Positions 24,614-41,126 of a DNA stretch of 64,000 nt are shown piece by piece. The stretch's first letter is position 1, and each line of letters begins with the position of its first letter. Under the pieces are notes generated by a model. That model searched no databases. It was not told where the DNA came from and was given only the letters and a program-made list of their open reading frames with translations. Both the position numbers and the translations under genes were made by a program. Location: NCBI GenBank assembly GCA_964460485.1, contig CAYWRY010000001.1:21761-85760 (forward strand). The letters are read 5' to 3'. This stretch comes from an uncultured Spirochaetales bacterium. Lineage in GTDB: Bacteria > Myxococcota_A > UBA9160 > UBA6930.

Positions 24614-24645
24614 CTCGAATCCTCCACTGACATCGAACCGCTTCC

Positions 24646-24739: not shown

Positions 24740-24764
24740 CAATCGCCCGCGCAGGAGGGCGCGC

Positions 24765-26761: not shown

Positions 26762-29445
26762 GCCGCTGCGCCCGCGCGCCGCGCGCCAAGCGCTCGCAGG
26801 AGCGTGGTCGCTGCCAGCGAGCCGAGGCTCGCGGCGAGCACGAGCAAGAGAGCGCGGGCGGGAAGGGGCGCGAGCGCGAGCACGCCCGCGAACGCGGGCA
26901 GGGTGCCCGCGGCCGCAATCAGGCCCGCGCACAGCGCGACGGCGCCCCACGCCCACGGGTTGCGCGTGACCTCGCTGCGCCACACGCGCGAGCCCGCTCC
27001 GCGCATGTCGAACACGTGCCAGAGCTGTGCGAGCGCGAGGGTGTAGAACGAGACGGTGACGACTTCGGCCTCGCCCAGGCCGAGCCCGCGCGAGGCCAGC
27101 GCCATGGCCGCGAACACGCTCGCGCTGATCGCGAGGCTCCCCCGCAGCGCCGCGCGCCAGTGCGCGGCCGCGAGCAGCGCTTCGCGCGGGTCGCGGGGCG
27201 GGCGATGCATCACGCCCTCCGGGCCCTCGGAAGCGCCGAGCGCGAGCGCCGGGAAGACGTCCGTCACGAAGTTTAGGAAGAGGATCTGGAGCGGCAGCAG
27301 CGGCAGCGGGGCGCGCAGCGCGGCGGCGAGGCCGACCACGAGGATCTCGCTGAGGTTGCACGCCACCAGGTAGATCACGAACGCGCGGATGTTCCCGAAA
27401 ATCACCCGGCCCTGGTGGACGGCGGCGACGATCGTCGCGAAGGCGTCGTCGCGCAGGACGAGGTCCGCCGCCTCGCGCGCGACCGCCGTGCCGCGCTCGC
27501 CCATCGCGATGCCGATGTCCGCCTTGCGCAGGGCCGGCGCGTCGTTCACGCCGTCGCCCGTCATCGCTACCACCGCGCCGTGCGCCTGGTGCAGGGCGAT
27601 CAACGCGAGCTTCTGCTCCGGGCTCGCGCGCGCCACGATCGGCGCCGCGAGCGCCGCCTCGCCGCTCGCGGCGAGCGCGTCCCCCCGCAGCACGGGCGCG
27701 TTCGCGTCGTGCACGAGCCCCACGGCGAGCGCGACGGTGCGCGCGGTCGCGGGCTGGTCGCCGGTCGCCATCACCACGCGGATGCCGGCGCCGCGGCAGG
27801 CCGCGAGCGCGCCTCGCACGTTCGGGCGCGGAGGGTCGAGCAGACCGACGAGGCCGAGCAGCGTCAGCCCCGCGTAGGGATCCTCGTCGGCGCGTGCCGC
27901 GCGACGCTCCGCGACTGCGAGCACGCGCAGCCCGCGGAGCGCCATCTCCTCGTTTCGCGCCAGCCAGCGAGCGCGCACCTCGCTGTCGAGGGCGCGCGCG
28001 GCCGCGCCGTCGGCGACGGCGCTGCACGCGGCGAGCACGGGCTCGGGCGCTCCCTTCACGGCGACGCGGAACGCCTCGGCTTCGCGGTGGACGGACGCCA
28101 TCATCTTCTGCGCCGGGTCGAAGGCGACGCTGCGCACCTCCGGCAGGCGCGCCACGAGCGCTTCGCGCTCGATGCCCGCCTCGCGCGCGGCGGCCAGGAG
28201 CGCGAGCTCGAGCGGATCTCCGACCGCCTCTGCGCCGTCGGCGAGCGCGGCGTCGTTGCACAGCGCGCCCGCTTCGAGCGCGCGCCTCAGCTCGAGCTCG
28301 GCGCCGGCGTCCAGCGGGCTGCCGTCGCGCGAGAAGGCGCGCGCGCCGGTGGCGACGCGCATTGCGCCGCCCGGCAGCGCGAGCTCGACCACCGTCAGGC
28401 GGTTCTCGGTGAGCGTGCCCGTCTTGTCGACGATCACGACGCCCGTGGCGCCGAGCGTCTCCACCGCCGCGAGCCGATTCACGAGGGCGTTGCGCTTTGC
28501 CATGCGGCGCACGCCGCGCGCGAGGGCGAGCGTCGCGATCACCGGAAGTCCCTCGGGCACGGCGGCGACGGCGAGCGCGAGGGCGGTCTCCACCATCACC
28601 GCCGGGTCGCGCTGCGCGGCGACGCCCGCGCCGATCACGAGCGCGGCGACGGCCACCGCGAGGACGAGCAGGCGGCGGCCCAGCCGGTCGAGGCGCCGCT
28701 CGAGCGGCGTCGGCGCGTCGGGCACTGCCTCGACGAGCCGGGCGATGCGTCCTAGCTCGGTGCTCGCGCCGGTGGCCACCACCACCGCTTCGCCCGAGCC
28801 GCGCGTCAGGGCCGAACCCTTGAAGAGCATGCCCGGCCGCTCGGCGAGCGGCGCAGCGGCGTCGACCGGCTCCGCGCGCTTGGCGACCGGCAGCGATTCG
28901 CCGGTGAGCAGCGACTCGTCCGCCTGGAGCTTCGAGCCCGACAGGATGCGCAGGTCCGCCGCGATCAAGTCGCCGGCTTCCAGCAGCACGATGTCTCCGG
29001 GCACGATGCGGTCCGCGTCGACGCGCTGGCTCCGGCCGTCGCGGCGCACGCTCGCCCGCTCGACGCCGAGCCTGCGCAGCGCCTCCACGGCGCGCACCGA
29101 CCGCAGCTCCGTCGCGAAGCCGATCGCGGCGTTGATCGCCAGCACGACGCCGATCGCCGCCGCCTCGAGGCGGTGCCCGGACGCGAGCGAGAGCCCGACG
29201 CCCACCGCGAGCATCGCCACCACGACGCTCTCGAACTGCGCAGCGAGCACGGCGAGCGCGCTGCGCGTGCGCGCCCGGCGCAGCTGATTCGGCCCGAAGC
29301 GCGAAAGGCGCGCCTGCGCTTCGGCGCTCGACAGGCCGCTGCGCGCGTCGACGGCCAAGGCCGCGAGCAGGGCGTGCGGTTCCGCCGCATGGGGAGCAGC
29401 GGGCGGAGCTTGCGGTGCCGCTGCGGGCGTCGGCGCGCGCTGCAT
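26758..29445 (-). CDS. cation-transporting P-type ATPase (P2-like)
   Basis: Full ORF, 895 aa. Contains LTGESLPV, DKTGTLT, MTGDGVNDAPAL and multiple TM segments. Its stop overlaps the convergent malic enzyme stop. Confidence 0.9.
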   Translation of the reverse strand: MQRAPTPAAAPQAPPAAPHAAEPHALLAALAVDARSGLSSAEAQARLSRFGPNQLRRARTRSALAVLAAQFESVVVAMLAVGVGLSLASGHRLEAAAIGVVLAINAAIGFATELRSVRAVEALRRLGVERASVRRDGRSQRVDADRIVPGDIVLLEAGDLIAADLRILSGSKLQADESLLTGESLPVAKRAEPVDAAAPLAERPGMLFKGSALTRGSGEAVVVATGASTELGRIARLVEAVPDAPTPLERRLDRLGRRLLVLAVAVAALVIGAGVAAQRDPAVMVETALALAVAAVPEGLPVIATLALARGVRRMAKRNALVNRLAAVETLGATGVVIVDKTGTLTENRLTVVELALPGGAMRVATGARAFSRDGSPLDAGAELELRRALEAGALCNDAALADGAEAVGDPLELALLAAAREAGIEREALVARLPEVRSVAFDPAQKMMASVHREAEAFRVAVKGAPEPVLAACSAVADGAAARALDSEVRARWLARNEEMALRGLRVLAVAERRAARADEDPYAGLTLLGLVGLLDPPRPNVRGALAACRGAGIRVVMATGDQPATARTVALAVGLVHDANAPVLRGDALAASGEAALAAPIVARASPEQKLALIALHQAHGAVVAMTGDGVNDAPALRKADIGIAMGERGTAVAREAADLVLRDDAFATIVAAVHQGRVIFGNIRAFVIYLVACNLSEILVVGLAAALRAPLPLLPLQILFLNFVTDVFPALALGASEGPEGVMHRPPRDPREALLAAAHWRAALRGSLAISASVFAAMALASRGLGLGEAEVVTVSFYTLALAQLWHVFDMRGAGSRVWRSEVTRNPWAWGAVALCAGLIAAAGTLPAFAGVLALAPLPARALLLVLAASLGSLAATTLLRALGARRAGAAA

Positions 29446-29495: not shown

Positions 29496-29975
29496 TCAGA
29501 GCGCGGCTTTCGCGAGCAGCGGCAGCAAGTCGAAGGTCGAGATCACGCCCACCAGCGCGCCGTGGTCAGTCACCCAGATGCGATGGATGCGGTCGCGATG
29601 CATGCGCGCCGCCACCTCGCCGATCGGCATGCTTGCGCTGACAGTCGCCGCGCCGGGCGTCATCACCTCCTCGGCGGTCACCTGGCGCAGCCGATCCTGG
29701 AAGTCCGCCGGCGCGCCGCGGCTCCAGTCCGGGCCGGAGAACTCCACCAGCTCGCGCAGGTACTCGCTGCCGAAGGCTCCCGACTCGGCCTGCTCGATCG
29801 CCGCGTTCACCAGGTCGGTCGAGGTGATCACACCGAGCACGCGGCCTTGGTCGTCGATCACCGGCGCGCCGTGGATCTCCTCGTCGCCGAACAGCCGGTG
29901 CACCTCGGCGAGCGGCGTCTCGGGCGACACCGAGATCACGGGGCTCTGCATTACGTCGCGCGCGCACACCGCCAT
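29496..29975 (-). CDS. stand-alone CBS-pair protein
   Basis: C-terminal 159 aa of ORF 29496..30461. MAVCARDVMQSPVISV...HGAPVIDDQGRVLGVITSTDL...HRIWVTDHGALVGVISTFDL, with GGGAGG upstream. Confidence 0.8.
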   Translation of the reverse strand: MAVCARDVMQSPVISVSPETPLAEVHRLFGDEEIHGAPVIDDQGRVLGVITSTDLVNAAIEQAESGAFGSEYLRELVEFSGPDWSRGAPADFQDRLRQVTAEEVMTPGAATVSASMPIGEVAARMHRDRIHRIWVTDHGALVGVISTFDLLPLLAKAAL

Positions 29976-29995: not shown

Positions 29996-30421
29996 TCAGC
30001 CGGCCTCCTTCGCCATCAGGGCTTCCTCGCGTCGCTCGTGCAGCACGAGGCGCGGCAGCCAGGCTCCGAGCAGGGTATCGCCGGCCGCGAGGTCGCGTGC
30101 GCGCAGGGCGGCGGCGACTTCGACCACCGCCCCGCGCAGAGCCTCGTGGTCGCGCACGAACTCCGCCAGCTCGTCGGCGGTCGCGGCGTCGCGACCGTGG
30201 AGCGCCGGGAAGTAGACCTGCTCCTCGAGCGTGAAGTGCGCCTCGAGCGCATCGGCGAAGCGCGCGAAGGATTGCTCCGCGCCCGCGGCGTCGCCCCGCG
30301 CCAGCGCGTTCTCGAAGACCTCGTGGAACTCGTCGAGCTGGTGGTGCTGCGAGGCGATGCGAAGCGCCTCGCGGCGCAGCCGGAGCCCGAGGCCGGAGTC
30401 GTTCGAGGTCGGGTCCGTCAC
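29996..30421 (-). CDS. hemerythrin-like (HHE cation-binding) domain protein
   Basis: Full ORF, 141 aa, GTG start. His/Glu-rich four-helix pattern: QHHQLDEFHEVFE...LEAHFTLEEQVYFPAL...FVRDHEAL...HERREE. Confidence 0.7.
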   Translation of the reverse strand: MTDPTSNDSGLGLRLRREALRIASQHHQLDEFHEVFENALARGDAAGAEQSFARFADALEAHFTLEEQVYFPALHGRDAATADELAEFVRDHEALRGAVVEVAAALRARDLAAGDTLLGAWLPRLVLHERREEALMAKEAG

Positions 30422-30456: not shown

Positions 30457-30472
30457 GGCAATCGTCGTGCCG
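30457..30472 (-). promoter_or_regulatory. sigma-54 promoter candidate for the hemerythrin-CBS-ATPase operon
   Basis: Minus strand reads CGGCACGACGATTGCC (GGCACG-N4-TTGC, near consensus). There are 36 nt to the GTG at 30421. Confidence 0.7.
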
Positions 30473-30587: not shown

Positions 30588-30603
30588 CGGCACGAACGCT
30601 GCT
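30588..30603 (+). promoter_or_regulatory. sigma-54 promoter candidate for the DUF4404 gene
   Basis: CGGCACGAACGCTGCT. Only 13 nt lie between the GC and the ATG at 30616, so the transcript is predicted leaderless. Divergent from 30457..30472. Confidence 0.6.
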
Positions 30604-30615: not shown

Positions 30616-30867
30616 ATGCCCACCCGCGACGTTCACGACGCCGTCGAGAAGCTTCACACCGCGCTCGCGGACGCCCCGACGCTCACGCCCGAGCTGCGTA
30701 GCGAGCTCGAGAGCGTGCTGCGCGACGTCGAGCGCGCGCTCGGAGGGCGCGAGCGGCCGCTGGCAACGCGCGCGACCGAGCTGACCGCGCGCTTCGAGGC
30801 GAGCCATCCCCGCCTGGCCGAATCCCTCGCCGCGCTCGCCCGTGCGCTCGCCGGCGTGGGGATCTGA
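30616..30867 (+). CDS. DUF4404-like small protein
   Basis: C-terminal 83 aa of ORF 30508..30867. MPTRDVHDAVEKLHTALADAPTLTPELRSELESVLRDVERAL...SHPRLAESLAALARALAGVGI fits the DUF4404 pattern from memory. Confidence 0.65.
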   Translation: MPTRDVHDAVEKLHTALADAPTLTPELRSELESVLRDVERALGGRERPLATRATELTARFEASHPRLAESLAALARALAGVGI

Positions 30868-30881: not shown

Positions 30882-32117
30882 TCACGGCTGCGCCTGGCGC
30901 AGCCCGGCGAGCGCGCGCAGCTCGGCGAGCCAATCGGTCACGTCGCGCGGGACGTCGAGCCCGGCCGAGCCCATCCAGCCGAGCACCGTCTGCTCCTCGA
31001 GCACGCCGTAGGCGTCGCGCGCGATGTCGCTGTTCGGCGCCGCGCGGATCGCGCTCTCGAGATAGGCCTCCGCCTGCGGCAGACCGCGGGACGGGTCGTT
31101 GCGGAGCTCGGCGAGGCCGAGCAGGTAGCTCGCCTCCGCGCGCTCGTCGGGGTTCGCGAGGCCGCGCGCGAGCGCGCGGTGCAAGAGCGCCGAGGCGACC
31201 AGGTCGTGCACGAGCGCGCTCCGATCCGCGGGAAAGCGCCGGCGCGCCTCCGCCTTGGCCAGCACCTCGCGCGCCTCGACCAGCGTCGAGGCCTGCTCGT
31301 AGGGAGCGAGTTGAGCCAGCGCCTCGCGCCAGCTCGCGAAGAGCTGGCCGAGATAGGGCGGGGCGTCGCCGCGCGCGGCGAGCGCCGCCAGCATGCGTCC
31401 TGCGCGCGCATAGTCGCTGCGCACGCGCAGGGCGACCACCAGGTAGTCCTCGAGCGCGCCCTCGAAGTCGAGCGCCGAGAGCGAGGTCGAGCGCGCGGCG
31501 AAAAGCTTCTCGTAGGTTTCGAGCGCTGCGTCGAACTGGCGCGTTGCGATCAGCAGCCGCGCGCGCGCGGTGGGCGGCGCGCTCTGCATGCGCGCGGTGA
31601 GCGGGACGCCCACCGCGTGCTCGCGGGGATCGGGCAGGCGCACGTGACAGCCGGCGCAGTCGTCCACCACCTGGTTCAGCAGGAAACGCGCCTCGTCGGA
31701 GCTGCCCGCCTGAAAGCGCTTCGCGATCTCGGTCGCGTCCTCGGAGAGCCGGCGGGCGAAGAATCGGAAGCCGGGCGTGTCGTCGCCCCCGTGGAGCTCG
31801 AGCGCCGAGGCGTTGCGGGAGAGCTCGCGCAGCGCGCCGCGCAGCTCCTCGCGCGCGGCGGGCGAGGCGAACGTCTCCTGATCCTGTGCGTACGGCAGTG
31901 CGATCTCGAGCGCCGAGACGATGCCCACCATGCGCGCGGGGGTGTTCGGCAGCTCCTCGGCCGCCGGCTGCTGAGGCGCACAAGCGGTCGAGGTGGCGAA
32001 CAGGACGACGAAAGAGAATGGGACGAAACGCCCCGCTCCGCGTCCGATCGCCTCGATGCGCGCCCCGCCATCGCAGCTCGCCACGTGCGCCGCCCCCGCC
32101 GTTTCCGAGTCCTTCAC
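30882..32117 (-). CDS. secreted/lipoprotein-like helical protein with a single CxxCH motif (paralog of 7073..8266)
   Basis: C-terminal ~411 aa of the 1448-aa track ORF 30882..35228. GTG at 32117 sits 9 nt after GGAGG; an alternative GTG lies at 32084. Hydrophobic FVPFSFVVLFATSTAC, then DDCAGCHVRLP. Collinear similarity to 7073..8266 runs to the C-terminus (...LAELRALAG vs ...[10 protein letters not shown]). Confidence 0.7.
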   Translation of the reverse strand: MKDSETAGAAHVASCDGGARIEAIGRGAGRFVPFSFVVLFATSTACAPQQPAAEELPNTPARMVGIVSALEIALPYAQDQETFASPAAREELRGALRELSRNASALELHGGDDTPGFRFFARRLSEDATEIAKRFQAGSSDEARFLLNQVVDDCAGCHVRLPDPREHAVGVPLTARMQSAPPTARARLLIATRQFDAALETYEKLFAARSTSLSALDFEGALEDYLVVALRVRSDYARAGRMLAALAARGDAPPYLGQLFASWREALAQLAPYEQASTLVEAREVLAKAEARRRFPADRSALVHDLVASALLHRALARGLANPDERAEASYLLGLAELRNDPSRGLPQAEAYLESAIRAAPNSDIARDAYGVLEEQTVLGWMGSAGLDVPRDVTDWLAELRALAGLRQAQP

Positions 32118-32148
32118 GTGCTTCCACCTCCGGTGTCGTTCGCAGGAC

Positions 32149-32164
32149 TGCAGGCAACATGCCG
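32149..32164 (-). promoter_or_regulatory. sigma-54 promoter candidate for the CxxCH paralog 2 gene
   Basis: Minus strand reads CGGCATGTTGCCTGCA with exact spacing. There are 32 nt to the GTG at 32117, containing GGAGG. Confidence 0.55.
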
Positions 32165-32173
32165 CTCCTCGCT

Positions 32174-32189
32174 TGGCATCGCCCCTGCA
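32174..32189 (+). promoter_or_regulatory. sigma-54 promoter candidate for the small membrane protein gene
   Basis: TGGCATCGCCCCTGCA. There are 15 nt to the ATG at 32204. It is back-to-back with 32149..32164, only 9 bp apart. Confidence 0.6.
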
Positions 32190-32203
32190 GAACGCATGGC
32201 GGC

Positions 32204-32494
32204 ATGAGTCCACGCGCTCGTCACGCCGCCATCGCCTGCGCGCTCGGGGCCGCGTTGGCGCTCGCCGGGGCCTTCGCGCTCGTCGGCCTTCGCCTGTACG
32301 CCATGTTCGAGCGCACGCTTCGGATCTTTGCAGGCGACGCGGGCACGCGGCCGCCGACCGGCCCTGACCTCGCGGCGGTGATGCTCGCCGTCGTGGCCGC
32401 GCTGCTCGCGTTCGGCGCGATCGCGCTCGCCGTCGCGGGGCGCCGCGCGGCGTTGGCCGTCGAGCGCGCGTCGCTGATCGAGCTCGGCGCCTGA
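32204..32494 (+). CDS. small two-TM membrane protein (hypothetical)
   Basis: C-terminal 96 aa of ORF 31886..32494. MSPRARHAAIACALGAALALAGAFALVGL...LAAVMLAVVAALLAFGAIALAV. GC3-rich codons and a dedicated promoter match support it. No family recognised. Confidence 0.45.
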   Translation: MSPRARHAAIACALGAALALAGAFALVGLRLYAMFERTLRIFAGDAGTRPPTGPDLAAVMLAVVAALLAFGAIALAVAGRRAALAVERASLIELGA

Positions 32495-32517
32495 GCGCGG
32501 CCTCGAGGGCGGATCGG

Positions 32518-32533
32518 CGGCACGCTTCCTGCT
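32518..32533 (+). promoter_or_regulatory. sigma-54 promoter candidate for the coiled-coil/prs-like/AMP-phosphorylase-like/beta-CASP operon
   Basis: CGGCACGCTTCCTGCT (GGCACG-N4-CTGCT). There are 42 nt to the ATG at 32575, with GAGGAGGA in between. Confidence 0.7.
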
Positions 32534-32574
32534 CCGGTTTGGGCGGTCGAGGCCCCGAGGCCGAGGAGGATCCG

Positions 32575-32838
32575 ATGACGCTTCGCGACGTGCTGAAAGA
32601 GGAGCTCGATGCGTTCCGCGAGCTGCGGGACGAGCTCCGCGTGCAGTCCCAGCTCGGCAAGGCGGAGGCCCGCGATCGCCTGCGCGAGCTCGAGCAGCGC
32701 TGGCACAAGCTCGAAGGGCGGCTCGACGGCGTCCGCAAGGATGCAAAGGGCGACGCCGAAGACGTCCGCGAAGCCCTGCGGCTGCTCGCGCGCGAGCTGA
32801 AGGAAGGCTTCGAGCACGTGCGGTCGCGGCTGTCGTAG
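32575..32838 (+). CDS. small coiled-coil protein (hypothetical)
   Basis: ORF 32539..32838. The ATG at 32575 sits 4 nt after GAGGAGGA. MTLRDVLKEELDAFRELRDELRVQSQLGKAEARDRLRELEQRWHKLEGRL... is highly charged and helical. Confidence 0.6.
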   Translation: MTLRDVLKEELDAFRELRDELRVQSQLGKAEARDRLRELEQRWHKLEGRLDGVRKDAKGDAEDVREALRLLARELKEGFEHVRSRLS

Positions 32839-32864
32839 CTCGCTCGGCCCGAGGCGCAGAAGTC

Positions 32865-33776
32865 ATGCTGATGCGAACGACGCGCCTGGCAGTGCACTGC
32901 TTTCCGGATTCGCTCGTGTTCGCTCGCAAGCTCGCGAGCGCGCTCGGGGCCACCCTCTCGCGCGTCGCGCTGCATTACTTCCCCGACGGCGAGACGCGCG
33001 TGCGAATCGAGCCCGGCAGCGGGGACGCGCTGCTCGTTCGCTCGCTGCACGATCCCAACGCGAAGCTGTTCGAGCTGCTGCTCGCGGCGTCGGCGCTGCG
33101 CGAGGGCGGCGCGCCCAGCGTCACGCTGGTCGCCCCCTACCTGCCGTACATGCGGCAGGACCGCGCCTTCGCGCCCGGAGAGGCCGTGTCCCAGCGCGTG
33201 CTGGGTCGACTGCTCGGCAGCAACTTCGAGCGCGTGATCTCCGTCGAGCCGCACCTGCACCGCATTGGCTCGCTCGCCGAGGTGTTCCCCTGCGAGACGC
33301 TCGCGCTCTCGGCGGCGCCGGCGATCGCGCGCTGGCTCGCCGCACAGCGCGAGCCCTGCTGGGTGGTGGGCCCCGACGAGGAATCGGAGCGCTGGGTGCG
33401 CGCGATCGGCGAGGCGGCGAAGCTGCCGCACGCGGTCGCGAGGAAGCAGCGCGCAGGCGACGACGCGGTGCTCGTCAGCTTGCCGCGCGGAGTGCGCGCT
33501 CCCTGTGCGCGCGCGGTGATCGTGGACGACATCGCCAGCTCCGGCGCCACCCTCGCAGCCGCTGCGCGCGCCCTCTACGAGGCCGGCGCAGAGTCCGTCG
33601 ACGCGGTCGTCGCCCACGCGATCTTCGCGCCGGGCGCGGAGGCGCGGCTGCGCGAGGCGCGCATCGGGCGCTTCGTCTCCTGCGACACGCTTCCGCATCC
33701 GACCAATGCAATCGAGGTGGCGGGCATCATCGCCGACGCCCTGCTCGCGGGCTCGGTCGCCCACGCGACCGTCTGA
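32865..33776 (+). CDS. ribose-phosphate pyrophosphokinase (PRPP synthetase) family protein
   Basis: Full ORF, 303 aa. Contains YFPDGETRVRI, LVAPYLPYMRQDR and the PRPP loop VIVDDIASSGATL. Confidence 0.8.
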   Translation: MLMRTTRLAVHCFPDSLVFARKLASALGATLSRVALHYFPDGETRVRIEPGSGDALLVRSLHDPNAKLFELLLAASALREGGAPSVTLVAPYLPYMRQDRAFAPGEAVSQRVLGRLLGSNFERVISVEPHLHRIGSLAEVFPCETLALSAAPAIARWLAAQREPCWVVGPDEESERWVRAIGEAAKLPHAVARKQRAGDDAVLVSLPRGVRAPCARAVIVDDIASSGATLAAAARALYEAGAESVDAVVAHAIFAPGAEARLREARIGRFVSCDTLPHPTNAIEVAGIIADALLAGSVAHATV

Positions 33777-35267
33777 ATGTTCCGCCTGAAGCGCATGTGC
33801 ATCGACACGCTCTCGGAGCACGTCGTGTTCATCCACGAGAGCGCCGTCGCGGAGGGCCGCCTCGGCTTCCAGCCCCTCGACCGCGTGCGCCTCCTCGACG
33901 GCAACGGCCGCGAGCTGACGGGTGTCCTCAACTTCTGTCGAGACGCGCTGTTGGCGCGCGACGAGATCGGGCTCTCCGACGTCGCCTTCCGCGACTTCGG
34001 GCTTCCGGAAGGGGCGCGCGTGCGCGCGACCCAGGCACCCGCACCCGACAGCGTCGAGCACGTGCGGCACAAGCTGCGCGGCGGCCGCCTCGCGCGCGCG
34101 GACTTCGACGCCGTGCTGCGCGACGTGTGCGCTCGCCGCTACTCGAAGCCCGAGCTCTCGATGTTCGTGCTCGCCTGCTCGCTGCGGCAGCTCGACCGGG
34201 CCGAGCTGGTGGCGTTCACCGAGGCGATGGTCGCCTGCGGCTCGCGGCTGGCCTGGGACGCCGAGGTCGTCGTCGACAAGCATTCGATCGGCGGCGTGCC
34301 GGGGAATCGCACCACCATGGTCGTGGTGCCGATCGTGACGTCGCTGGGCCTCACCATGCCGAAGACGTCGTCTCGCGCGATCACGAGCCCGAGCGGAACC
34401 GCGGACACGATGGCGACGCTTGCGGAGGTCGCGCTCTCGCCGGAGACCATTCGCCGCGTTGTGGAGCAGACCGGCGGCTGCATCGCCTGGGGCGGCGCCC
34501 TCGACCTGGCGCCGGCGGACGACGTGCTGATCACCGTCGAGCGCCCGATGGGCATCGACACCGAGGCGCAGATGATCGCGTCGATCCTCTCGAAGAAGAA
34601 GACGGCGGGCGCGACCCACGCGCTGATCGACGTGCCCGTGGGACCGAGCGCGAAGGTGCGCAGCCACCGCGCCGGAGAGGAGTTGGCCGAGCTGTTCCGC
34701 CACGTGGGCGAAGCCGTCGGGCTCACGCTCGACGTCGTGCTGACGGAGGCGCACGGGCCGATCGGCTGCGGCGTCGGGCCGCGCCTCGAAGCGCTCGACG
34801 TGCTCGCGGTGCTGGAGCGCAAGCCCGACGCGCCGCGCGACCTGCGCGAGAAGAGCCTGTTCCTCGCGGCGCGGCTGCTCGAGCGCGCGGGCGCCGTGCC
34901 CGACGCGGGTGGCTACCGCGCGGCGCAGGAGGCGCTCGACTCGGGCGCCGCCCTCGAGCGCTTCTCGGCGATTCGCGCGCTCCAGGGAGCGCGCGACCTC
35001 CCGCCGCCCGCGCCCTTCACGGCCGTCGTGCCCGCGCCCAGCGACGGCCGCGTCCGCGCGCTGGATTGCCTGCGCATCGCGCGCATCGCGAGGCTCGCCG
35101 GCGCGCCGGCGAATCCCGCGGCGGGGCTGCGTGTGCTCTGCCGCGTGGGCGACGTGGTCGCGCGCGGCGAGCCGCTGCTCGAGGTCCACGCGCTGAGCGA
35201 GGCGCAGCTCGGCTTCGCGGTGGCGCACGCCGAGCAGGCGCCCGACCTCGTCGAGATCGGGTTCTGA
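33777..35267 (+). CDS. thymidine phosphorylase family protein of the AMP-phosphorylase-like type (long N-terminal domain)
   Basis: Full ORF, 496 aa. The ATG immediately follows the upstream stop. The N-terminal ~90 aa are collinear with the archaeal AMP phosphorylase N-domain as I recall it. Core motifs: DKHSIGGVPGNRTT, SSRAITSPSGTADT and SKKKTAGA. Confidence 0.8.
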   Translation: MFRLKRMCIDTLSEHVVFIHESAVAEGRLGFQPLDRVRLLDGNGRELTGVLNFCRDALLARDEIGLSDVAFRDFGLPEGARVRATQAPAPDSVEHVRHKLRGGRLARADFDAVLRDVCARRYSKPELSMFVLACSLRQLDRAELVAFTEAMVACGSRLAWDAEVVVDKHSIGGVPGNRTTMVVVPIVTSLGLTMPKTSSRAITSPSGTADTMATLAEVALSPETIRRVVEQTGGCIAWGGALDLAPADDVLITVERPMGIDTEAQMIASILSKKKTAGATHALIDVPVGPSAKVRSHRAGEELAELFRHVGEAVGLTLDVVLTEAHGPIGCGVGPRLEALDVLAVLERKPDAPRDLREKSLFLAARLLERAGAVPDAGGYRAAQEALDSGAALERFSAIRALQGARDLPPPAPFTAVVPAPSDGRVRALDCLRIARIARLAGAPANPAAGLRVLCRVGDVVARGEPLLEVHALSEAQLGFAVAHAEQAPDLVEIGF

Positions 35268-35299
35268 GCGCGACGCCGGCGGGTGCAGCGGGAGGTCGC

Positions 35300-36691
35300 G
35301 TGAGCGCCACGCTTCAGTTCCTCGGCGCCGCCGAGACCGTGACCGGCAGCCGGTTCCTGCTGCGCACGCGCCGCGCGCGCGTGCTGGTCGACTGCGGGCT
35401 GTTCCAGGGCCCGAAGGCGTTGCGCCTGCGCAACTGGGCGCCGTTCCCGATTCCGCCCCGCGAGCTCGACGCGGTCGTGCTCACGCACGCGCACGTCGAC
35501 CACGCGGGCTTCGTGCCGCGCCTGGTCGCGGAGGGGTTCCGCGGTCCCGTGTTCGCAACGCGCGGGACCGAGGCGCTCTGCGGTGTCGTGCTGCCGGACA
35601 GCGGGCGCCTGCACGAAGAGGACGCCAGCGTCGCCAACGCGGAGGGCTGGTCGCGGCACGCGCCCGCGCTGCCGCTCTACACCGAGGAGGATGCGCTGCG
35701 CGCGCTCGAGCGCTTCCGCCGCGTGGAGACGGATGCGTGGTTCGACGTCGCGCCCGGCGTGCGCGGCCGCTTCGCCCGCGCCGGCCACATCCTCGGGGCC
35801 GCGTCGCTCGTCCTGGAGGATGAGGCGTCCGGGCGGCGGGTTGGGTTCTCGGGAGACCTGGGTCGCCCCGCGCACCCGCTGCTCCGGCCGCCCGAGCCCA
35901 TGCCGCGCGTCGACGCGCTGGTGTGCGAGTCGACCTACGGCGACCGCAAGCACCCGCCCAGCGCGGAGGTGGTGGCGGCGCTCGGCGCCGCGATCGCGCG
36001 CACCGCGGCGCGCGGCGGGGTGACGCTGATCCCCGCGTTCGCCGTCGACCGCACCGAGGTCATGCTCCTCCACTTGCGCGAGCTCATGCAGAGCGGCGCC
36101 GCGCCGCGCCTACCGGTCTACGTGGACAGCCCGATGGCGCTCGCGGCGCTCGCCATCTACCGGCGCGCGATCTCCGAGCGCTGGCCCGAGATTCGCGCCG
36201 ATCTGCGGGGTGACGGGACGCTCTTCGATCCCGGCGACCTGCGCGAGGTGCGCACGCTGGCGCAGTCGCGCGAGCTGCAGGCCGGCGGCATCGGGCCGTG
36301 CATCATCGTGTCCGCCTCGGGCATGGCGACCGGCGGTCGCGTGCTGCGCCATCTGGCGCGGCACCTGCCCGACCCGCGTGCGAGCGTCGCGCTGGTCGGT
36401 TATCAGGTGCCCGGCACGCGCGGGCACCGGCTCTTGCGCGGCGAGCGCGCCGTCAAGATGCTGGGGCGCTACGTGCCCGTGCGCGCGGAGGTGGTGAACC
36501 TCGCCGGCTTCTCGGTGCACGCGGACGCGGACGAGACGCTCGCCTGGCTCGGCAGCGCCGAGGCCGCGCCGGAAATCTGCTACGCGGTGCATGGCGAGCC
36601 GGAGCCGACGCGCGCGCTGGCCGCGCGCATCGACGCCGAGCTCGGCTGGGCGGCGGTCGCGCCGCGCGATGGCGAGCGCGTGGGGATCTGA
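35300..36691 (+). CDS. MBL-fold beta-CASP family hydrolase (RNA-metabolising type)
   Basis: C-terminal 463 aa of ORF 33797..36691. GTG at 35300 follows GGAGG. Contains GSRFLL, THAHVDHAG, CESTYGD and FSVHADADE. Confidence 0.85.
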   Translation: MSATLQFLGAAETVTGSRFLLRTRRARVLVDCGLFQGPKALRLRNWAPFPIPPRELDAVVLTHAHVDHAGFVPRLVAEGFRGPVFATRGTEALCGVVLPDSGRLHEEDASVANAEGWSRHAPALPLYTEEDALRALERFRRVETDAWFDVAPGVRGRFARAGHILGAASLVLEDEASGRRVGFSGDLGRPAHPLLRPPEPMPRVDALVCESTYGDRKHPPSAEVVAALGAAIARTAARGGVTLIPAFAVDRTEVMLLHLRELMQSGAAPRLPVYVDSPMALAALAIYRRAISERWPEIRADLRGDGTLFDPGDLREVRTLAQSRELQAGGIGPCIIVSASGMATGGRVLRHLARHLPDPRASVALVGYQVPGTRGHRLLRGERAVKMLGRYVPVRAEVVNLAGFSVHADADETLAWLGSAEAAPEICYAVHGEPEPTRALAARIDAELGWAAVAPRDGERVGI

Positions 36692-36786
36692 GGACGCGGA
36701 GCGGCCGCGCTCGGTCAGCGCGCGCAGCTCACCGGCGGAGGCCCCGGGGCCGCACTGCTCGGCTCGCGCAGCGGCCGCCGCCGTGC

Positions 36787-37293
36787 TCACCGCCTCCACG
36801 TCACGCGCACGAGGTTTTCGCGCGACGAGGCCGGGACGCGCAGCGTGCCGCGGTGGGCGCGGCGGAGCGCAGCCCCGATCCCGCGCGCCAGCTTGGAGTC
36901 GGTGGTCGCGATCTCGAGGCCGTCGGCCGTCGCCTGGATCGACGCGATGCGCTTCAGCGGGTGCTCGGCGCGCTCGCGCTCTTCGACGTTGCGCGCCAGG
37001 TGCTCGAGCTCTTCGCGATGCTCGGCGACGTACGCACCATGCATCTCCACCACGCCCGCCGGATAGCCGTCCGCGATGCGCTTGCAGGCAGGGCACACCA
37101 CCGGCGCCGCGTCGGCCGGAGCCGCCCCCCAGGCCCAGCGCCCGTTCCGGTAGATCGCGCGGCACTCGCTGCACGCGCTCGGGTCGGGAAGCTTGCGCCG
37201 CAGCGCATAGGGGTCCGAGCGCAGGGGCTTCTTCTGCGCATCCTGGCGCGGCAGGGATCCGGCAGCGTGAGTCTTCGAGCGTTGGCGTCGCAT
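36787..37293 (-). CDS. small Cys-cluster protein (CxxC...CxxC), BCAM0308-like
   Basis: C-terminal 168 aa of ORF 36787..37452. GAGGAGGA lies upstream of the ATG at 37293. CSECRAIYRNGRWAW...VCPACKRIADGYPAGVVEM. The family name is from memory of an NCBI label and needs checking. Confidence 0.65.
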   Translation of the reverse strand: MRRQRSKTHAAGSLPRQDAQKKPLRSDPYALRRKLPDPSACSECRAIYRNGRWAWGAAPADAAPVVCPACKRIADGYPAGVVEMHGAYVAEHREELEHLARNVEERERAEHPLKRIASIQATADGLEIATTDSKLARGIGAALRRAHRGTLRVPASSRENLVRVTWRR

Positions 37294-37316
37294 GGGTCCT
37301 CCTCGGGCGGAGAGAA

Positions 37317-37450: not shown

Positions 37451-38695
37451 ATGAACTTCGATCGCGAGTCCCTCCTCGCGTTCTACGAGCTCAGCGACAC
37501 GGAGATCGCCCGCCTCGCCGAGCTGCGGCCGATGCTCGAGAAGCGTGCCGACAGCTTGGTCGCCGCCTTCTACCGGCACCTGCTGGGCTTCCCCGAGACG
37601 CGCAAGCTGCTGCGCGATCCGCGGGTCACCGAGCGGCTGCTGGGGGAGCAGAAGCGCTACCTGCTGAGCCTCGCCTCGCCCACGATCGACGACGCGTACC
37701 TGGAGCAGAGACGCCAGATCGGCGTGGCGCACGAGCGCATCGGGCTCGCGCCGACCTGGTACCTGGGCGCCTATTCGCTCTACGAGGCGCTGCTCGTCCC
37801 CATCTTGCTCGAGGAGTACTCATCGAACCTGGAGCGCGCCCGCGGGCTGCTCATGACCCTGCGGCGGCGGCTGCATCTCGACGCGGCGCTCGCGCTCGAG
37901 ACCTACGTGGACCGTCGCGAGCGGGATCTCGAGTACCTGAACCAGCAGCTTGCCGAGGCGAGCCGCAAGCTCGCGCGCGACCTCGAGAGCACCGGCGTCG
38001 AGCTGCGCTCGAGCCGCGCGCGGGCGCAGGCGGCCGAGCGGCTCGCCTCGATCGGCACCCTCGTCGCCGGCCTCGCCCACGAGATCGGCACGCCCATGGG
38101 CGTGATCCAGGGCCACGCCAAGCTGCTCGAGAACGCCGTGCAGGACGAGAGCGGGCGCTGGCGCCTGCGGACGATTCAGGCACAGATCTCGCGGATCGCG
38201 CGGATCATGGAGAGCCTGCTCAACATGGCGCGGCCCTCCGCGCGGCGTACCCGCGTCCTGGTTGCGCTGCCGGCGGTGCTCGACAACACGCTGGCTTTCC
38301 TGACGGAGCGGCTCACGCGGCGGCGCGTCGAGGTGGTGCGCGACTACGCCGAGACGCCGTCGATCCGCGCCGACCCCGAGGCGCTCCAGCAGATCTTCCT
38401 GAACCTGGTGATGAACGCGATCGACGCCATGCCAAGCGGCGGAGAGCTGCGCGTCTCGATCGCCCCGATCGAGGCCGGCGCGGAGGTGCGCATCGCGGAC
38501 AACGGGAGCGGCATGCCCCCCGAGGCGCGCGAGCGGATCTTCGACCCGTTCTTCACGACGAAGGAGGCCGGCCAGGGCCACGGGCTCGGCCTCGCGGTCG
38601 CCCAAGGCATCGCCCACGACCACGGCGGCGAAATCACCCTGGTCCGCTCCGGCCCGGGCGGCACCGAGTTTCGCGTCACGCTCGCGGCTGAGTGA
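37451..38695 (+). CDS. globin-coupled (protoglobin domain) sensor histidine kinase, cytoplasmic
   Basis: C-terminal 414 aa of ORF 37292..38695. The N-terminal sensor-globin pattern includes the proximal-His region RRQIGVAHERIGLAPTWYLGAY. This is followed by a coiled coil, H-box LAHEIGTP, N-box NLVMNAIDAM and G-boxes DNGSGM and GHGLGL. Confidence 0.85.
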   Translation: MNFDRESLLAFYELSDTEIARLAELRPMLEKRADSLVAAFYRHLLGFPETRKLLRDPRVTERLLGEQKRYLLSLASPTIDDAYLEQRRQIGVAHERIGLAPTWYLGAYSLYEALLVPILLEEYSSNLERARGLLMTLRRRLHLDAALALETYVDRRERDLEYLNQQLAEASRKLARDLESTGVELRSSRARAQAAERLASIGTLVAGLAHEIGTPMGVIQGHAKLLENAVQDESGRWRLRTIQAQISRIARIMESLLNMARPSARRTRVLVALPAVLDNTLAFLTERLTRRRVEVVRDYAETPSIRADPEALQQIFLNLVMNAIDAMPSGGELRVSIAPIEAGAEVRIADNGSGMPPEARERIFDPFFTTKEAGQGHGLGLAVAQGIAHDHGGEITLVRSGPGGTEFRVTLAAE

Positions 38696-38798: not shown

Positions 38799-38814
38799 TG
38801 GCATGAAGCCTGCT
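38799..38814 (+). promoter_or_regulatory. sigma-54 promoter candidate for the activator gene itself
   Basis: TGGCATGAAGCCTGCT. There are 15 nt between the GC and the ATG at 38829, so the leader is predicted to be very short. Implies autoregulation. Confidence 0.6.
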
Positions 38815-38828: not shown

Positions 38829-40238
38829 ATGCGACACACGGCTCAGATCCTCATCGTCGACGATGACCGCGCCATGCGCGAAATGCTTGCCTCGCTGTTC
38901 AAGGAGCGCGGGCTCTGGGTGGAAGAGGCGAGCTCCGCTCGCGCTGCACTCGAGCTCGCGGCGGAGCGCGAGTTCGACGTGGTGCTCTCCGACATCCGCA
39001 TGCCCGGCCTCTCGGGCATCGAGCTGGTGGGACAGCTGCGCCGGCTGCGTCCCAACACGCCGGTCGTGCTGATGACGGCATTCGGCACGATCGACTCGGC
39101 GGTCGAGGCGATGCGCGCGGGCGCCTTCGACTACATCACCAAGCCCTTCGAGCCGGAAGCGGTGAGCTTCGCCGTGGATCGCGCCATCGAGCGCGCGGCC
39201 CTGGCGCGCGAGAACGAGACGCTGCGGCGCGCGGTGCAGACCACCGGCGAGCTGGGCGAGTTGATCGGCTCGAGCGCTGCGATGCGCGACATCATCGCGC
39301 TGATCCAGCGCGTGGGTCACAGCCGCGCGAGCGTGCTGATCACGGGCGAGAGCGGCACGGGAAAGGAGGTGATCGCGCGGACGCTGCACTTCCACGGCGC
39401 GCGTCGCGAGATGCCGTTCGTGCCGATCAACTGCACGGCGATTCCCGAGGGCCTGCTCGAGAGCGAGCTGTTCGGTCACGTGCGCGGCGCCTTCACCGGC
39501 GCGCACACCAACAAGCGCGGCCTGTTCGAGAAGGCCAATGGCGGGACGCTGTTCCTCGACGAGGTCGGCGACATGGGCCTCGCGCTCCAGGGCAAGCTGC
39601 TGCGCGTGCTCCAGGATCGCGAGATCCGGCCGGTGGGCGGTACCCAGACGATCAAGGTGGACGTGCGCATCATCGCGGCCACCAACAAGGACCTGCCCGC
39701 CGAGATCGCCGCCGGGCGTTTCCGCGAGGACCTGTTCTACCGGCTGAACGTCGTGCCCATCCACGTCCCGCCCCTGCGCGAGCGCACCGACGACATCCCG
39801 GCGCTGGTGGAGGCCTTCCTGCGGCGCCACGGCGAGGGGCGCAAGCGCTTCGTCTCCGCCGAGGCGATGGCCGTGCTGCGCGCGCAGCCGTGGCGCGGCA
39901 ACGCCCGCGAGCTGGAGAACACGATCGAGCGCGCGATCGCGCTGACGGACGTGGAGACGCTGGGCCCCGCCGACATCCCGCTGCCGGCGAGCACCGGGGG
40001 TCCGCCCGCGACAGGAGCCTCCGCAGGAGCGCCGGTGGATCTCGACACCCTGCTGCGCGCTGCGGCGGCGCGCGGCACGAGCCTGCGCGACCTCGACGAG
40101 AAGTACACGGCCATCGTGCTCGCCCACACGGGGGGCAACAAGGTGCGCGCGTCGCAGATCCTCGGCATCGACCGGAAGACGCTCTACCGTCGCGCCGAGC
40201 GCCGCGCCCGCGAAGAGGGCGCGAGCGACGAGGAGTGA
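38829..40238 (+). CDS. sigma-54-dependent response regulator (NtrC family: REC-AAA+-HTH)
   Basis: Full ORF, 469 aa. REC domain ILIVDDD...SDIRMPG, Walker A GESGTGKE, the sigma-54 contact loop GAFTGA, FLDEVG and a C-terminal Fis-type HTH NKVRASQILGIDRKTLYRR. Confidence 0.92.
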   Translation: MRHTAQILIVDDDRAMREMLASLFKERGLWVEEASSARAALELAAEREFDVVLSDIRMPGLSGIELVGQLRRLRPNTPVVLMTAFGTIDSAVEAMRAGAFDYITKPFEPEAVSFAVDRAIERAALARENETLRRAVQTTGELGELIGSSAAMRDIIALIQRVGHSRASVLITGESGTGKEVIARTLHFHGARREMPFVPINCTAIPEGLLESELFGHVRGAFTGAHTNKRGLFEKANGGTLFLDEVGDMGLALQGKLLRVLQDREIRPVGGTQTIKVDVRIIAATNKDLPAEIAAGRFREDLFYRLNVVPIHVPPLRERTDDIPALVEAFLRRHGEGRKRFVSAEAMAVLRAQPWRGNARELENTIERAIALTDVETLGPADIPLPASTGGPPATGASAGAPVDLDTLLRAAAARGTSLRDLDEKYTAIVLAHTGGNKVRASQILGIDRKTLYRRAERRAREEGASDEE

Positions 40239-40241
40239 CGC

Positions 40242-41126
40242 GTGAAGAGCCCCCGCAAGATCCTGGTGGCGACCGACTTCTCCGCCGGCGCCGAGCGCGC
40301 GTTGGACACGGCGCTCGCGCTCGCCGCTCCAGCGAAGGGCGAAGTGCACGTGGTGCACGCGCTCGAGATCCCGCTGCCGATGTTCGAGCCCTACGCGGTC
40401 GCGCTTCCGCCGGAGCTGATCGGCGCCGCCCGCAAGACGGCGCAAGAGAAGCTCGCCGCGGCCGGCGAGAAGGTGCGCGCGCGCGGTCTCACCGGCACGA
40501 CCTTCCTCGGCGAGGTGCCGGCTTCGATGTGCGTCGCCGAGCGCGCCAAGGCAATCGGCGCGGATCTGGCGGTGATCGGCACCCACGGCCACACCGGCTT
40601 CAAGCGCTTCCTGCTCGGCAGCGTCGCGGAGCGCACGGTGAAGGAATCTCCGGTCTCGGTGCTCACGGTGAAGGGCGAGGGGCGCGCCGAGGCGCCCAAG
40701 ACGATCGTGATCGGCGTCGACTTCTCGAAGCACTCCCAGGAAGCCGTGGAGCTGGCCGCGGACTGGGCGCGGGCGTTCGGCGCGACTCTCTACCTGGTGC
40801 ACGGCCTCGAGCTGCGCATGCCGTTCGTCACTCCGTACGAGGTATCGGTGCCGGACGCGCTCATCGACGCCGCCTACGCGGAGGGCAAGAAGCGCCTCCA
40901 GGAGCTGGCCGGGAAGCTCACGGGCGTGAACGTGCGCACGGAGCTCGCGAGCGCACCCGCCCACGCGGCCCTCGACGGCGTGGCAGAACGCGTCCGCGCG
41001 GACTTGATCGTGACCGGCTCGCGCGGCCTCGGCGGCATCAAGCATGCGGTGCTCGGCAGCGTCGCGGAGCGCACGCTGCGCCACGCGCCGTGCAGCGTGC
41101 TCACGGTGAAGTCGCACATCGGGTGA
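40242..41126 (+). CDS. tandem universal stress protein (paralog of 3623..4507)
   Basis: Full ORF, 294 aa. GTG is 4 nt after the activator stop. Roughly 60% identical by eye to 3623..4507 and the same length. Confidence 0.9.
   Translation: MKSPRKILVATDFSAGAERALDTALALAAPAKGEVHVVHALEIPLPMFEPYAVALPPELIGAARKTAQEKLAAAGEKVRARGLTGTTFLGEVPASMCVAERAKAIGADLAVIGTHGHTGFKRFLLGSVAERTVKESPVSVLTVKGEGRAEAPKTIVIGVDFSKHSQEAVELAADWARAFGATLYLVHGLELRMPFVTPYEVSVPDALIDAAYAEGKKRLQELAGKLTGVNVRTELASAPAHAALDGVAERVRADLIVTGSRGLGGIKHAVLGSVAERTLRHAPCSVLTVKSHIG

Follow-up and report, generated by a model that had tools for sequence, protein, structure and literature searches.

The archaeal pathway for adenosine monophosphate (AMP), which needs ribose-1,5-bisphosphate (R15P), is defined by form III RuBisCO and an R15P isomerase. 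In the literature we found, phosphorolysis of nucleotides to R15P is treated as belonging to archaea or candidate phyla and as bound up with form III RuBisCO, and bacterial AMP phosphorylases are described only from candidate-phyla and WOR-3 lineages that carry this RuBisCO. To our knowledge, the sole bacterial fate of R15P is the reaction of E. coli PhnN, which converts R15P and ATP into phosphoribosyl pyrophosphate (PRPP) and ADP; PhnN is a P-loop kinase and belongs to the phosphonate (C-P lyase) pathway. The AMP phosphorylase of T. kodakarensis (TkAMPpase) accepts all natural nucleoside monophosphates (NMPs) and deoxynucleoside monophosphates, and its 84 N-terminal residues aid multimer formation (PMC8376864). 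Here we describe a four-gene operon at positions 32518-36691 of a 64-kb window, the whole stretch of DNA that was analysed, taken from contig CAYWRY010000001.1 of an uncultured Spirochaetales bacterium placed by GTDB in Myxococcota_A. We lean towards reading it as a low-oxygen or stress operon whose products would carry out the archaeal type of nucleotide phosphorolysis in a bacterium.

Three genes with matching product names are on record from Bradyrhizobium diazoefficiens. They are bll3117, bll3116 and bll3115, annotated in that order as a thymidine phosphorylase family protein, a ribose-phosphate pyrophosphokinase and a metallo-beta-lactamase (MBL) fold hydrolase, and their proteins all belong to a 62-protein core low-oxygen proteome; at 0.5% oxygen the log2 protein fold changes are 2.1, 4.4 and 2.9 and the transcript fold changes 5.1, 7.7 and 15.4 (PMC6515984, Table 2). 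They are predicted to form a single operon with a FixK2 box at -74, and their expression falls in fixK2 backgrounds (PMC9104804). In both papers the three genes appear only in tables, and their function is not discussed (PMC6515984, PMC9104804). Apart from these table entries, our literature search returned no functional study of a bacterial module that joins thymidine-phosphorylase-family (TP), PRPP-synthetase-family (Prs) and, in some cases, MBL genes, and a link between a beta-CASP protein and a nucleotide phosphorylase is not described in the literature we found.

The operon in the window, whose G+C content is about 74%, opens with a sigma-54-type -24/-12 element, CGGCACGCTTCCTGCT, at 32518-32533 on the plus strand, a pattern match with a GG-N10-GC core. 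Behind it, all on the plus strand, lie genes for a small coiled-coil protein (32575-32838; 87 amino acids from an ATG at 32575, or 99 from a TTG at 32539), an accessory ribose-phosphate diphosphokinase paralogue of 303 amino acids (PrsL; 32865-33776), an AMP/NMP-phosphorylase-like protein of the thymidine phosphorylase superfamily of 496 amino acids (TPL; 33777-35267) and a predicted beta-CASP MBL ribonuclease of 463 amino acids (35300-36691), whose GTG start at 35300 is preceded by the ribosome-binding site GGGAGG. The gaps between the four genes are 26, 0 and 32 nt, the ATG of TPL abutting the stop codon of PrsL as TGAATG. A scan of 32100-37000 gave no sigma-70-like promoter and no credible internal terminator, and the downstream neighbour (36787-37311, minus strand) is convergent. 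The initial annotation had described just such a sigma-54-marked operon of four genes, with an AMP-phosphorylase-like protein carrying a long N-terminal domain, translationally adjacent to a PRPP-synthetase-family gene and followed by a beta-CASP hydrolase of the RNA-processing type; all of these elements were found where it had placed them, and the domain and structure matches given below agree with its assignments.

TPL carries the Pfam domains Glycos_trans_3N, Glycos_transf_3 and PYNP_C, together with about 90 extra residues at its N terminus. It matches the T. kodakarensis AMP phosphorylase structure 4GA5 at E=1.7e-94 over residues 10-487, with the N-terminal domain included: this domain, about 84 residues long in AMP phosphorylase, corresponds to TPL residues 10-90 aligned to 4GA5 residues 9-89. 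The best human, Geobacillus and E. coli nucleoside phosphorylases match at 1e-34 to 1e-23, in alignments that begin at about residue 78-128 of TPL. By BLASTP, the protein is 39% identical to T. peptonophilus AMP phosphorylase from end to end (residues 2-485 vs 1-484). Among NCBIfam models, it scores 610 bits to NF003338 and 529 bits to TIGR02645 (cutoff 434.6), and it misses the nucleoside-phosphorylase equivalogs TIGR02643 (147 bits vs 571), NF004747 (124 vs 559) and NF004490 (193 vs 269).

The phylogenetic placement that the initial annotation had proposed was made with a neighbour-joining tree of 11 diverse archaeal AMP phosphorylases, 27 bacterial sequences (the window TPL and 26 others) and E. 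coli DeoA. The archaeal and bacterial sequences form sister clades, both distant from DeoA, and TPL is placed in the bacterial clade, not nested among the archaeal enzymes. Its identity is 38% to archaeal, 43-85% to bacterial and 26% to DeoA sequences, and its nearest named relatives come from Myxococcota and 'Deltaproteobacteria' metagenome-assembled genomes (MAGs); no record carries an identical TPL sequence. At 81 alignment columns, both clades have the identical residue with at least 90% conservation; these columns take in the HSIGGVPGN, PKTSSRAITS..GTAD, WGG, ER and SKK blocks. The basic residues K196, K293 and R/K178 are shared by both clades and absent from DeoA, and only five positions are clade-specific, mostly by conservative exchange (Y/L, R/K, L/M, D/E and D/S). 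TPL thus lies outside the curated archaeal equivalog, yet its conserved residue set is essentially the same, and it is probably the bacterial counterpart of AMP phosphorylase, which would convert an NMP and phosphate into a base and R15P. We also considered use of pyrophosphate or PRPP by TPL, as in the distant homologue TrpD; this is unlikely, the conserved residues matching those of the archaeal enzymes and of the RuBisCO-linked enzymes described next.

We compared the surroundings of TPL genes in 160 loci, of which 80 were kept from a genome set with one genome per species (at least 599 species have a TPL relative) and 80 were further, independent metagenome loci, seeded with an Acidobacteriota TPL and taken with 6-kb flanks. 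Three of the 160 read RNase R, TPL, an R15P-isomerase-like gene and form III RuBisCO, with no PrsL: L021:7623-13649 and L075:490-6346, both in Acidobacteriota MAGs, and L091, at approximately 3880-9700 of a metagenome contig. The RuBisCO of these loci scores 501.8 bits to TIGR03326 (cutoff 497.45); the isomerase-like protein has TIGR00511 as its best family, at 190 bits and below the cutoff of 314. RNase R, upstream of TPL, is a second and unrelated form of exoribonuclease in the place of the beta-CASP protein. PrsL and the isomerase-RuBisCO pair occur together in none of the 160 loci, and the closest relatives of the L021 TPL (54-59% identity) already have PrsL.

The RuBisCO-linked enzymes of L021 and L075 differ at a single position (L251I) among the 115 that are conserved at 95% or more in 68 Prs-linked TPLs. 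Near-identity at the conserved positions speaks for a shared chemistry, with R15P as the product, in both groups. Our strongest indirect evidence for the activity follows from this: because an archaeal-type gene pair that needs R15P adjoins near-identical TPLs, the bacterial TPL clade, including the window enzyme, would make R15P from nucleotides. As an observation in its own right, the RuBisCO-linked loci place an archaeal-type AMP pathway in a bacterial phylum beyond the candidate-phyla and WOR-3 lineages of the literature we found. The 64-kb window itself contains no R15P isomerase or RuBisCO by tblastn with the L021 proteins (E<=1e-6) or in Pfam scans of 40 neighbouring open reading frames (ORFs). 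This agrees with the initial annotation, which had also anticipated that the product would meet a fate unlike that in the archaeal pathway; the rare lineage that has both genes has them without PrsL.

PrsL, the usual partner, has the Pfam domains Pribosyltran_N, Pribosyltran and Pribosyl_synth. It scores above cutoff to NCBIfam NF005537 (355 bits vs 322) and TIGR01251 (186 vs 113) and reaches no equivalog model. Among solved structures its nearest matches are 1U9Y from M. jannaschii (E=7.6e-34) and 4TWB from Sulfolobus, both PRPP synthetases of the archaeal class III. In an alignment of 66 PrsL sequences with four characterized enzymes, the motifs FPDGE, PYLxYMRQD, D/E-P-H and GPD, the KxR flexible loop and the 5-phosphate loop DDxxSxGxT are all kept, and the family has conserved motifs of its own, HLHR, PDxES..W and GDR. 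PrsL occurs on 109 plasmid records and would therefore be an accessory copy, not the essential housekeeping PRPP synthetase of its host.

The parsimonious reading is that PrsL would be catalytically active, with an adenine nucleotide and a ribose 5-phosphate as its ligands. As for the step it catalyses, our foremost though tentative candidate is the canonical reaction, in which ribose-5-phosphate and ATP would give PRPP and AMP, and the AMP would pass to TPL. The PhnN reaction, from R15P and ATP to PRPP and ADP, is possible at a slightly lower level of expectation; something else altogether is unlikely, and transfer from R15P to AMP, giving ribose-5-phosphate and ADP, is more unlikely again. 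This last reaction underlies a proposal that we regard as improbable, namely that PrsL is not a PRPP synthetase but a ribose-1,5-bisphosphate:AMP phosphotransferase, which with the RNase and the phosphorylase would harvest ATP equivalents and pentose phosphate from the cell's own RNA once respiration stops. By our own reasoning, such a reaction would be the reverse of the PRPP-synthetase geometry minus one phosphate, and would be compatible with full motif conservation.

The beta-CASP protein has the three Pfam domains of the RNase J/CPSF73/TTHA0252 group of ribonucleases, Lactamase_B, Beta-Casp and RMMBL, and its best solved structure is the T. thermophilus RNase TTHA0252 (E=8.8e-79). The HxHxDH motif (THAHVDH) is conserved in the alignment with TTHA0252; the remaining metal-binding motifs were read by eye. 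Elsewhere, relatives of this gene keep other company: on a plasmid of Bradyrhizobium sp. BTAi1 (L090:7871-10353) the beta-CASP gene is divergent from a gene of the TIGR00730 family, which we take to be the LOG family that includes nucleotide nucleosidases, and on C. necator H16 pHG1 (L089:2909-10312) a two-piece, probably decayed copy stands among universal stress protein, hemerythrin and phosphoribosyltransferase genes. At L081, the locus of the closest relative (85% identical), the beta-CASP gene is called as two fragments of 241 and 100 amino acids (11500-12895), which may be a frameshift or an assembly error; the response-regulator gene of that locus also appears shortened at its 5' end.

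The first gene of the operon is more restricted. Its listed ORF starts at 32539; the likely true start is the ATG at 32575, which stands behind a GAGGAGG ribosome-binding site and is aligned with L081, where an 88-amino-acid gene occupies the matching position. The protein has a sub-threshold match (22 bits, cutoff 35) to the NCBIfam stress-protein family sll1863_fam. No homologue was found in the 80 genome loci, and the gene is seen only in the window and, by position and size, in L081.

The initial annotation had held that its reading would fall if the three enzyme genes did not co-occur outside this genome, and they do co-occur elsewhere. PrsL stands next to TPL in 108 of the 160 loci, adjoining it on the same strand in 67 of the 80 genome loci and lying within the 6-kb flanks in 41 of the 80 metagenome loci. 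As for the beta-CASP gene, 41 of the 160 have it close to TPL, 22 of these without PrsL: it lies within 10 kb in 17 genome loci, six of which have TPL and beta-CASP and no PrsL, and it is present in 24 metagenome loci, 16 of them without PrsL. Neither partner is seen in 22 of the 80 metagenome loci, many of which are on truncated contigs. Among the genome loci TPL-PrsL is the usual order, with PrsL first in the delta/myxobacterial lineage. The trio reads Prs-TP-MBL in the window, Prs-MBL-TP in L082 and MBL-TP-Prs on plasmids, and this variation in gene order argues for selection on linkage, not inherited synteny.

Plasmid records hold TPL in 126 cases, PrsL in 109 and the beta-CASP gene in 235, and the full trio is found on plasmids of Ralstonia, Legionella, Paracoccus and Sphingobium (L085:7607-15966; L086:6105-12428; L087:8977-16097; L088:1491-5876). 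All three reading frames overlap on the plasmids of Ralstonia insidiosa, Legionella pneumophila and Paracoccus aerodenitrificans; on that of Sphingobium herbicidovorans the overlap is between MBL and TP, with PrsL immediately after them. A gene for a copper P-type ATPase comes directly after the MBL-TP-Prs trio on the Ralstonia, Legionella and Paracoccus conjugative plasmids, and DUF2933 and isoprenylcysteine-methyltransferase-like genes are near the trio on three of the four plasmids (Ralstonia, Paracoccus and Sphingobium). All-against-all clustering of flanking ORFs revealed no further universal partner and gave lineage-restricted neighbours only: a PstB-like ABC-transporter ATPase, a P-type ATPase, a short-chain dehydrogenase, an HD-GYP-like protein and a membrane protein. 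One plasmid entry (H71) had suggested a TPL-PrsL fusion, which we rejected; its gene table is incomplete and the genes are separate. In four Hydrogenophaga loci (L015, L042, L043 and L048), extra ORFs that cluster with the TPL family lie about 4-6 kb upstream and may represent a second paralogue of the thymidine phosphorylase superfamily.

The element in front of the operon is a predicted sigma-54 promoter: it has the GG-N10-GC arrangement, lies at a fitting distance of about 40 nt from the ATG at 32575, is conserved in L081 and has a gene for an NtrC-type activator nearby. At the equivalent spot in L081 the promoter reads GGCACACTTCCTGCT, which is the longest conserved intergenic block. Across the window a loose sigma-54 consensus with two mismatches allowed gives 27 matches vs 15.5 expected, a mild enrichment only. 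The strict core GGCA[CT]N5NTGC[ATC] occurs 14 times vs 3.1 +/- 1.8 in 200 dinucleotide shuffles, about 4.5 times the shuffled frequency, and none of the 200 shuffles reaches 14. Other sigma-54-type cores are at 2334-2349 (-), 2454-2469 (+), 3581-3596 (+), 6563-6578 (+), 13106-13121 (+), 14840-14855 (+), 30457-30472 (-), 30588-30603 (+), 32149-32163 (-), 32174-32189 (+), 38799-38814 (+) and 42852-42867 (+). Several stand directly 5' of genes for a tandem universal stress protein (3623), HSP20 (about 6600), hemerythrin, DUF4404 and the response regulator, and this density of sites suggests a larger sigma-54 stress regulon in the window. Three further sites are kept in L081, those at 30588, 32163 (-) and 32174 (+) corresponding to 6210, 7749 (-) and 7761 (+) there; the first is 5' of DUF4404, and the other two form a divergent pair between a CXXCH lipoprotein and a small membrane protein gene. 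A site also precedes the response-regulator gene in both the window and L081, at positions that correspond only loosely.

The candidate regulators are encoded 0.8-2 kb downstream of the operon. A globin-coupled (protoglobin) sensor histidine kinase, whose start codon is uncertain, spans 37451-38695 (+; Pfam Protoglobin, 122 bits, with HisKA and HATPase_c) and has the same arrangement in L081. It is followed by an NtrC-type response regulator with a sigma-54 activator domain at 38829-40238 (+; Response_reg, Sigma54_activat at 241 bits and HTH_8), just 5' of which lies the sigma-54-like site at 38799-38814. In the distant locus L005, weaker and tentative tblastn matches to a histidine kinase and a sigma-54 activator are found in the same order just upstream of TPL.

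Collectively, these observations are consistent with a model in which the operon most likely turns RNA into nucleotides, and nucleotides into bases and R15P, during low oxygen or growth arrest. It would be transcribed from the sigma-54 promoter, most likely under the control of the adjacent NtrC-type activator and globin-coupled kinase. The beta-CASP RNase would degrade RNA to 5'-nucleoside monophosphates, and TPL would convert nucleotide and phosphate into free base and R15P. PrsL would then stand in for the archaeal R15P isomerase and RuBisCO, returning the ribose phosphate to the PRPP or ribose-5-phosphate pool with use of an adenine nucleotide. Both the order of these steps and the regulatory wiring are our inference. 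The growth-arrest idea of the initial annotation fits the low-oxygen trio of B. diazoefficiens, with its shared annotation names, and the oxygen-sensor, sigma-54 and stress genes around the operon.

Several observations weigh against this model. TPL is only 38-39% identical to archaeal AMP phosphorylases and, at 451 bits, does not reach the cutoff of 535 for the AMP-phosphorylase equivalog TIGR03327 (EC 2.4.2.57). All enzymatic activities in the proposed route are predictions, and the literature we found reports no assay of an enzyme from the bacterial TPL clade. PrsL has every canonical motif and may be an ordinary PRPP synthetase, in which case R15P is left with no identified sink. Only about one locus in four has the beta-CASP gene together with TPL, and this gene is on more plasmid records than TPL (235 vs 126) and is therefore not dedicated to the pathway. 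In about another quarter of the loci TPL has neither partner, though many of these contigs are truncated. The B. diazoefficiens operon is matched by annotation names and gene order alone. When the sequences that precede 13 sigma-54-like sites were compared by 10-mers, no shared activator-binding motif rose above the G+C-rich background, and for this reason we treat the wiring from kinase to activator to sigma-54 promoter as conjectural. The plasmid trio sits in copper/metal-resistance islands, so that oxygen is not the pure story. In several Gammaproteobacteria (Chromatiales-like) an ORF that reads as a pstB-like ABC-transporter ATPase lies directly 5' of TPL-PrsL (L009, L018, L041, L050 and L071), with 27-490 nt between its end and TPL (in L071, about 500 nt), which hints at phosphate-regulon control in those lineages. 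In our interpretation, the copper, pstB-like and Na+/phosphate contexts could all be accommodated by a general link to growth arrest and to RNA turnover that needs phosphate.

The same facts can be arranged without RNA catabolism. In that account, which we hold to be rather unlikely, PrsL would be an ordinary class III PRPP synthetase, TPL would clear its AMP, so that a cell of low energy charge could go on forming PRPP for the salvage of NAD and nucleotides and AMP accumulation would be relieved, and the RNase would be accessory. PRPP synthetases of the archaeal class III type are not known to be inhibited by ADP. The canonical motifs of PrsL, its nearness to the M. jannaschii class III enzyme, the abutting PrsL and TPL genes and the many loci, the majority, in which the pair stands without an RNase all speak for removal of AMP, the one metabolite common to canonical Prs and AMP phosphorylase. 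It would, however, leave R15P without a sink and destroy adenylate under energy stress, and it explains neither the 22 loci with beta-CASP and TPL and no PrsL nor those that read RNase R, TPL, isomerase and RuBisCO. We give much less credence to ordinary nucleoside salvage, in which TPL would be the thymidine or pyrimidine nucleoside phosphorylase of its public annotation and PrsL a spare PRPP synthetase. Here the Pfam and NCBIfam superfamily placement, the name 'thymidine phosphorylase' of NF003338 and the missed AMP-phosphorylase cutoff are set against a match to AMP phosphorylase that is better by 60 orders of magnitude than that to any nucleoside phosphorylase, an identity to DeoA of 26%, the N-terminal domain and the basic residues that TPL shares with AMP phosphorylases and DeoA does not have. 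Near-identical TPLs adjoin an isomerase-like gene and form III RuBisCO, which need R15P and not ribose-1-phosphate, and a scan of 44 window ORFs gave neither a phosphopentomutase nor a deoxyribose-phosphate aldolase.

The presence of the trio on many conjugative plasmids could also be taken to mark a mobile defence or addiction module, in which phage infection or loss of the plasmid would lead the nuclease and the nucleotide-degrading enzymes to exhaust RNA or nucleotides; at 350 bits vs a cutoff of 800, the beta-CASP protein also matches Cas14, the type VII CRISPR nuclease, below threshold. This we find scarcely credible. PADLOC returned no match for the four operon proteins or the BCAM0308-family protein encoded next to them, the neighbours are stress-protein, oxygen-sensor and metal-resistance genes and not defence islands, and the genes are chromosomal in many lineages. 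Moreover, FixK2 mediates the low-oxygen induction of the B. diazoefficiens trio, whose annotation names are the same (PMC6515984, PMC9104804). Of the explanations weighed, we favour the low-oxygen or stress operon for nucleotide phosphorolysis.

The wider neighbourhood is rich in stress genes. Convergent to the operon, the gene at 36787-37311 (-) encodes a BCAM0308-family (NMD3-like) protein (NCBIfam lxa_BCAM0308 equivalog, 176 bits vs 100; Pfam NMD3). L081 has a Pfam NMD3 gene, called at 166 amino acids, in the corresponding position, with a small cytochrome c gene just downstream on the same strand. After the response regulator come a tandem universal stress protein (40242-41126, +; two Usp domains, 188 bits), found in the same position in L081, and a Na+/phosphate cotransporter (41216-42808, +; Na_Pi_cotrans, 156 bits), which we note as context and as a possible phosphate supply; in one other locus, L055, a homologue of this cotransporter comes right after PrsL. 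Upstream, Pfam matches identify a P2-type cation ATPase (26758-29445, -), a CBS-pair protein (29496-29960, -) and a hemerythrin (29996-30421, -), the last with the sigma-54-like site 30457-30472 (-) just upstream; the layout of ATPase and hemerythrin is the same in L081. Between these and the operon are DUF4404 (about 30616-30867, +; Pfam) behind site 30588, the CXXCH lipoprotein (30882-32060, -) behind site 32163 (-) and the small membrane protein (32204-32494, +) behind site 32174 (+). Farther out, just upstream of the P-type ATPase, are a 310-amino-acid type I phosphoribosyltransferase with a weak uracil-phosphoribosyltransferase-like match (24477-25409, +) and a malic enzyme (about 25500-26761, +); in the examined part of L081 the malic enzyme is seen and the phosphoribosyltransferase is not.

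A second stress cluster occupies 3623-8266. It comprises another tandem universal stress protein (3623-4507), HSP20 (within 6540-7076), a 397-amino-acid protein with no Pfam match (7073-8266) and, on the minus strand at 5543-6772, a ClpP-like serine protease of the SDH type that has an NfeD domain. Its tandem universal stress protein and HSP20 genes, farther from the operon, both lie behind sigma-54-like sites. Other TPL loci have comparable surroundings. The L082 TPL has as neighbours a PAS kinase and its regulator, four universal stress proteins and CBS proteins. A regulator with FnrL/FixK as its best NCBIfam match, below cutoff, is near TPL in L077, together with ORFs that by sequence reading resemble a tandem universal stress protein and the cbb3 oxidase subunit CcoN; ORFs read in the same way near TPL in L118, L119 and L123 resemble HSP20, an FNR-type regulator and a universal stress protein.

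The locus is thus one ordinary member of a widespread, mobile and stress-regulated module family, and its interest lies in the chemistry of that family. Our data point to a sister clade of AMP phosphorylases that is spread over several hundred bacterial species or more and carried by over 100 plasmids, those of Legionella, Ralstonia and rhizobia among them. It is usually coupled to an uncharacterized PRPP-synthetase paralogue and often placed among low-oxygen and stress genes. Solving the pathway would give proper names to three genes whose annotations are widely wrong or vague, and would show a bacterial fate of R15P. It would possibly explain part of the recycling of ribosomal RNA in non-growing, oxygen-starved cells, which bears on persistence, nodule physiology and soil survival. 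Should the phosphotransferase reading of PrsL prove true, bacteria of different phyla, and plasmids, would share a pathway that conserves energy through RNA catabolism and replaces the archaeal isomerase-RuBisCO branch.

Among the described systems, the operon of B. diazoefficiens has the same three product names and is induced by low oxygen. The TP-Prs-MBL order of that operon is the one found in alphaproteobacterial loci such as L010 and L074, whereas the window has Prs-TP-MBL, with a coiled-coil first gene that B. diazoefficiens lacks, and a sigma-54 element with an NtrC-type activator in place of the CRP/FNR-type FixK2 box. The lxa (low-oxygen-activated) locus of B. cenocepacia, from which the BCAM0308 family takes its name, also contains a gene of this family. 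As described in the main text of its report, it combines universal stress proteins and a cation P-type ATPase, serves survival of anoxic growth arrest and has an FNR/Anr-like motif instead of sigma-54 (PMC3721108). We considered whether the trio itself belongs to the lxa locus and rejected this, as that main text names no thymidine-phosphorylase-family, pyrophosphokinase or beta-lactamase-fold gene (PMC3721108), and the BCAM0308-family gene is the sole link.

The individual proteins likewise resemble known enzymes and depart from them. The beta-CASP protein has the domain architecture and HxHxDH motif of TTHA0252 and archaeal aCPSF1, and, unlike aCPSF1, no N-terminal KH domains. PrsL has in common with M. 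jannaschii Prs (1U9Y/1U9Z) the FPDxE, RQD, PH and PD motifs, the KxR loop and DDxxSxGxT; it differs in being accessory, often plasmid-borne and almost always beside TPL, and in its own HLHR, PDxES..W and GDR motifs. E. coli PhnN offers a precedent for an R15P route ending in PRPP, the role that PrsL could play after TPL, although its fold is unrelated to that of PrsL. TPL is homologous over its full length, N-terminal domain included, to the archaeal AMP phosphorylase (TK0353, PDB 4GA4-4GA6) and shares its 81 near-invariant positions. Unlike the archaeal enzyme, it is mostly partnered by a PRPP-synthetase paralogue, a beta-CASP RNase or both, not by isomerase and RuBisCO; its hosts are Proteobacteria, Myxococcota-like and other non-archaeal lineages, in which the module is predicted to be controlled by oxygen and stress regulators.

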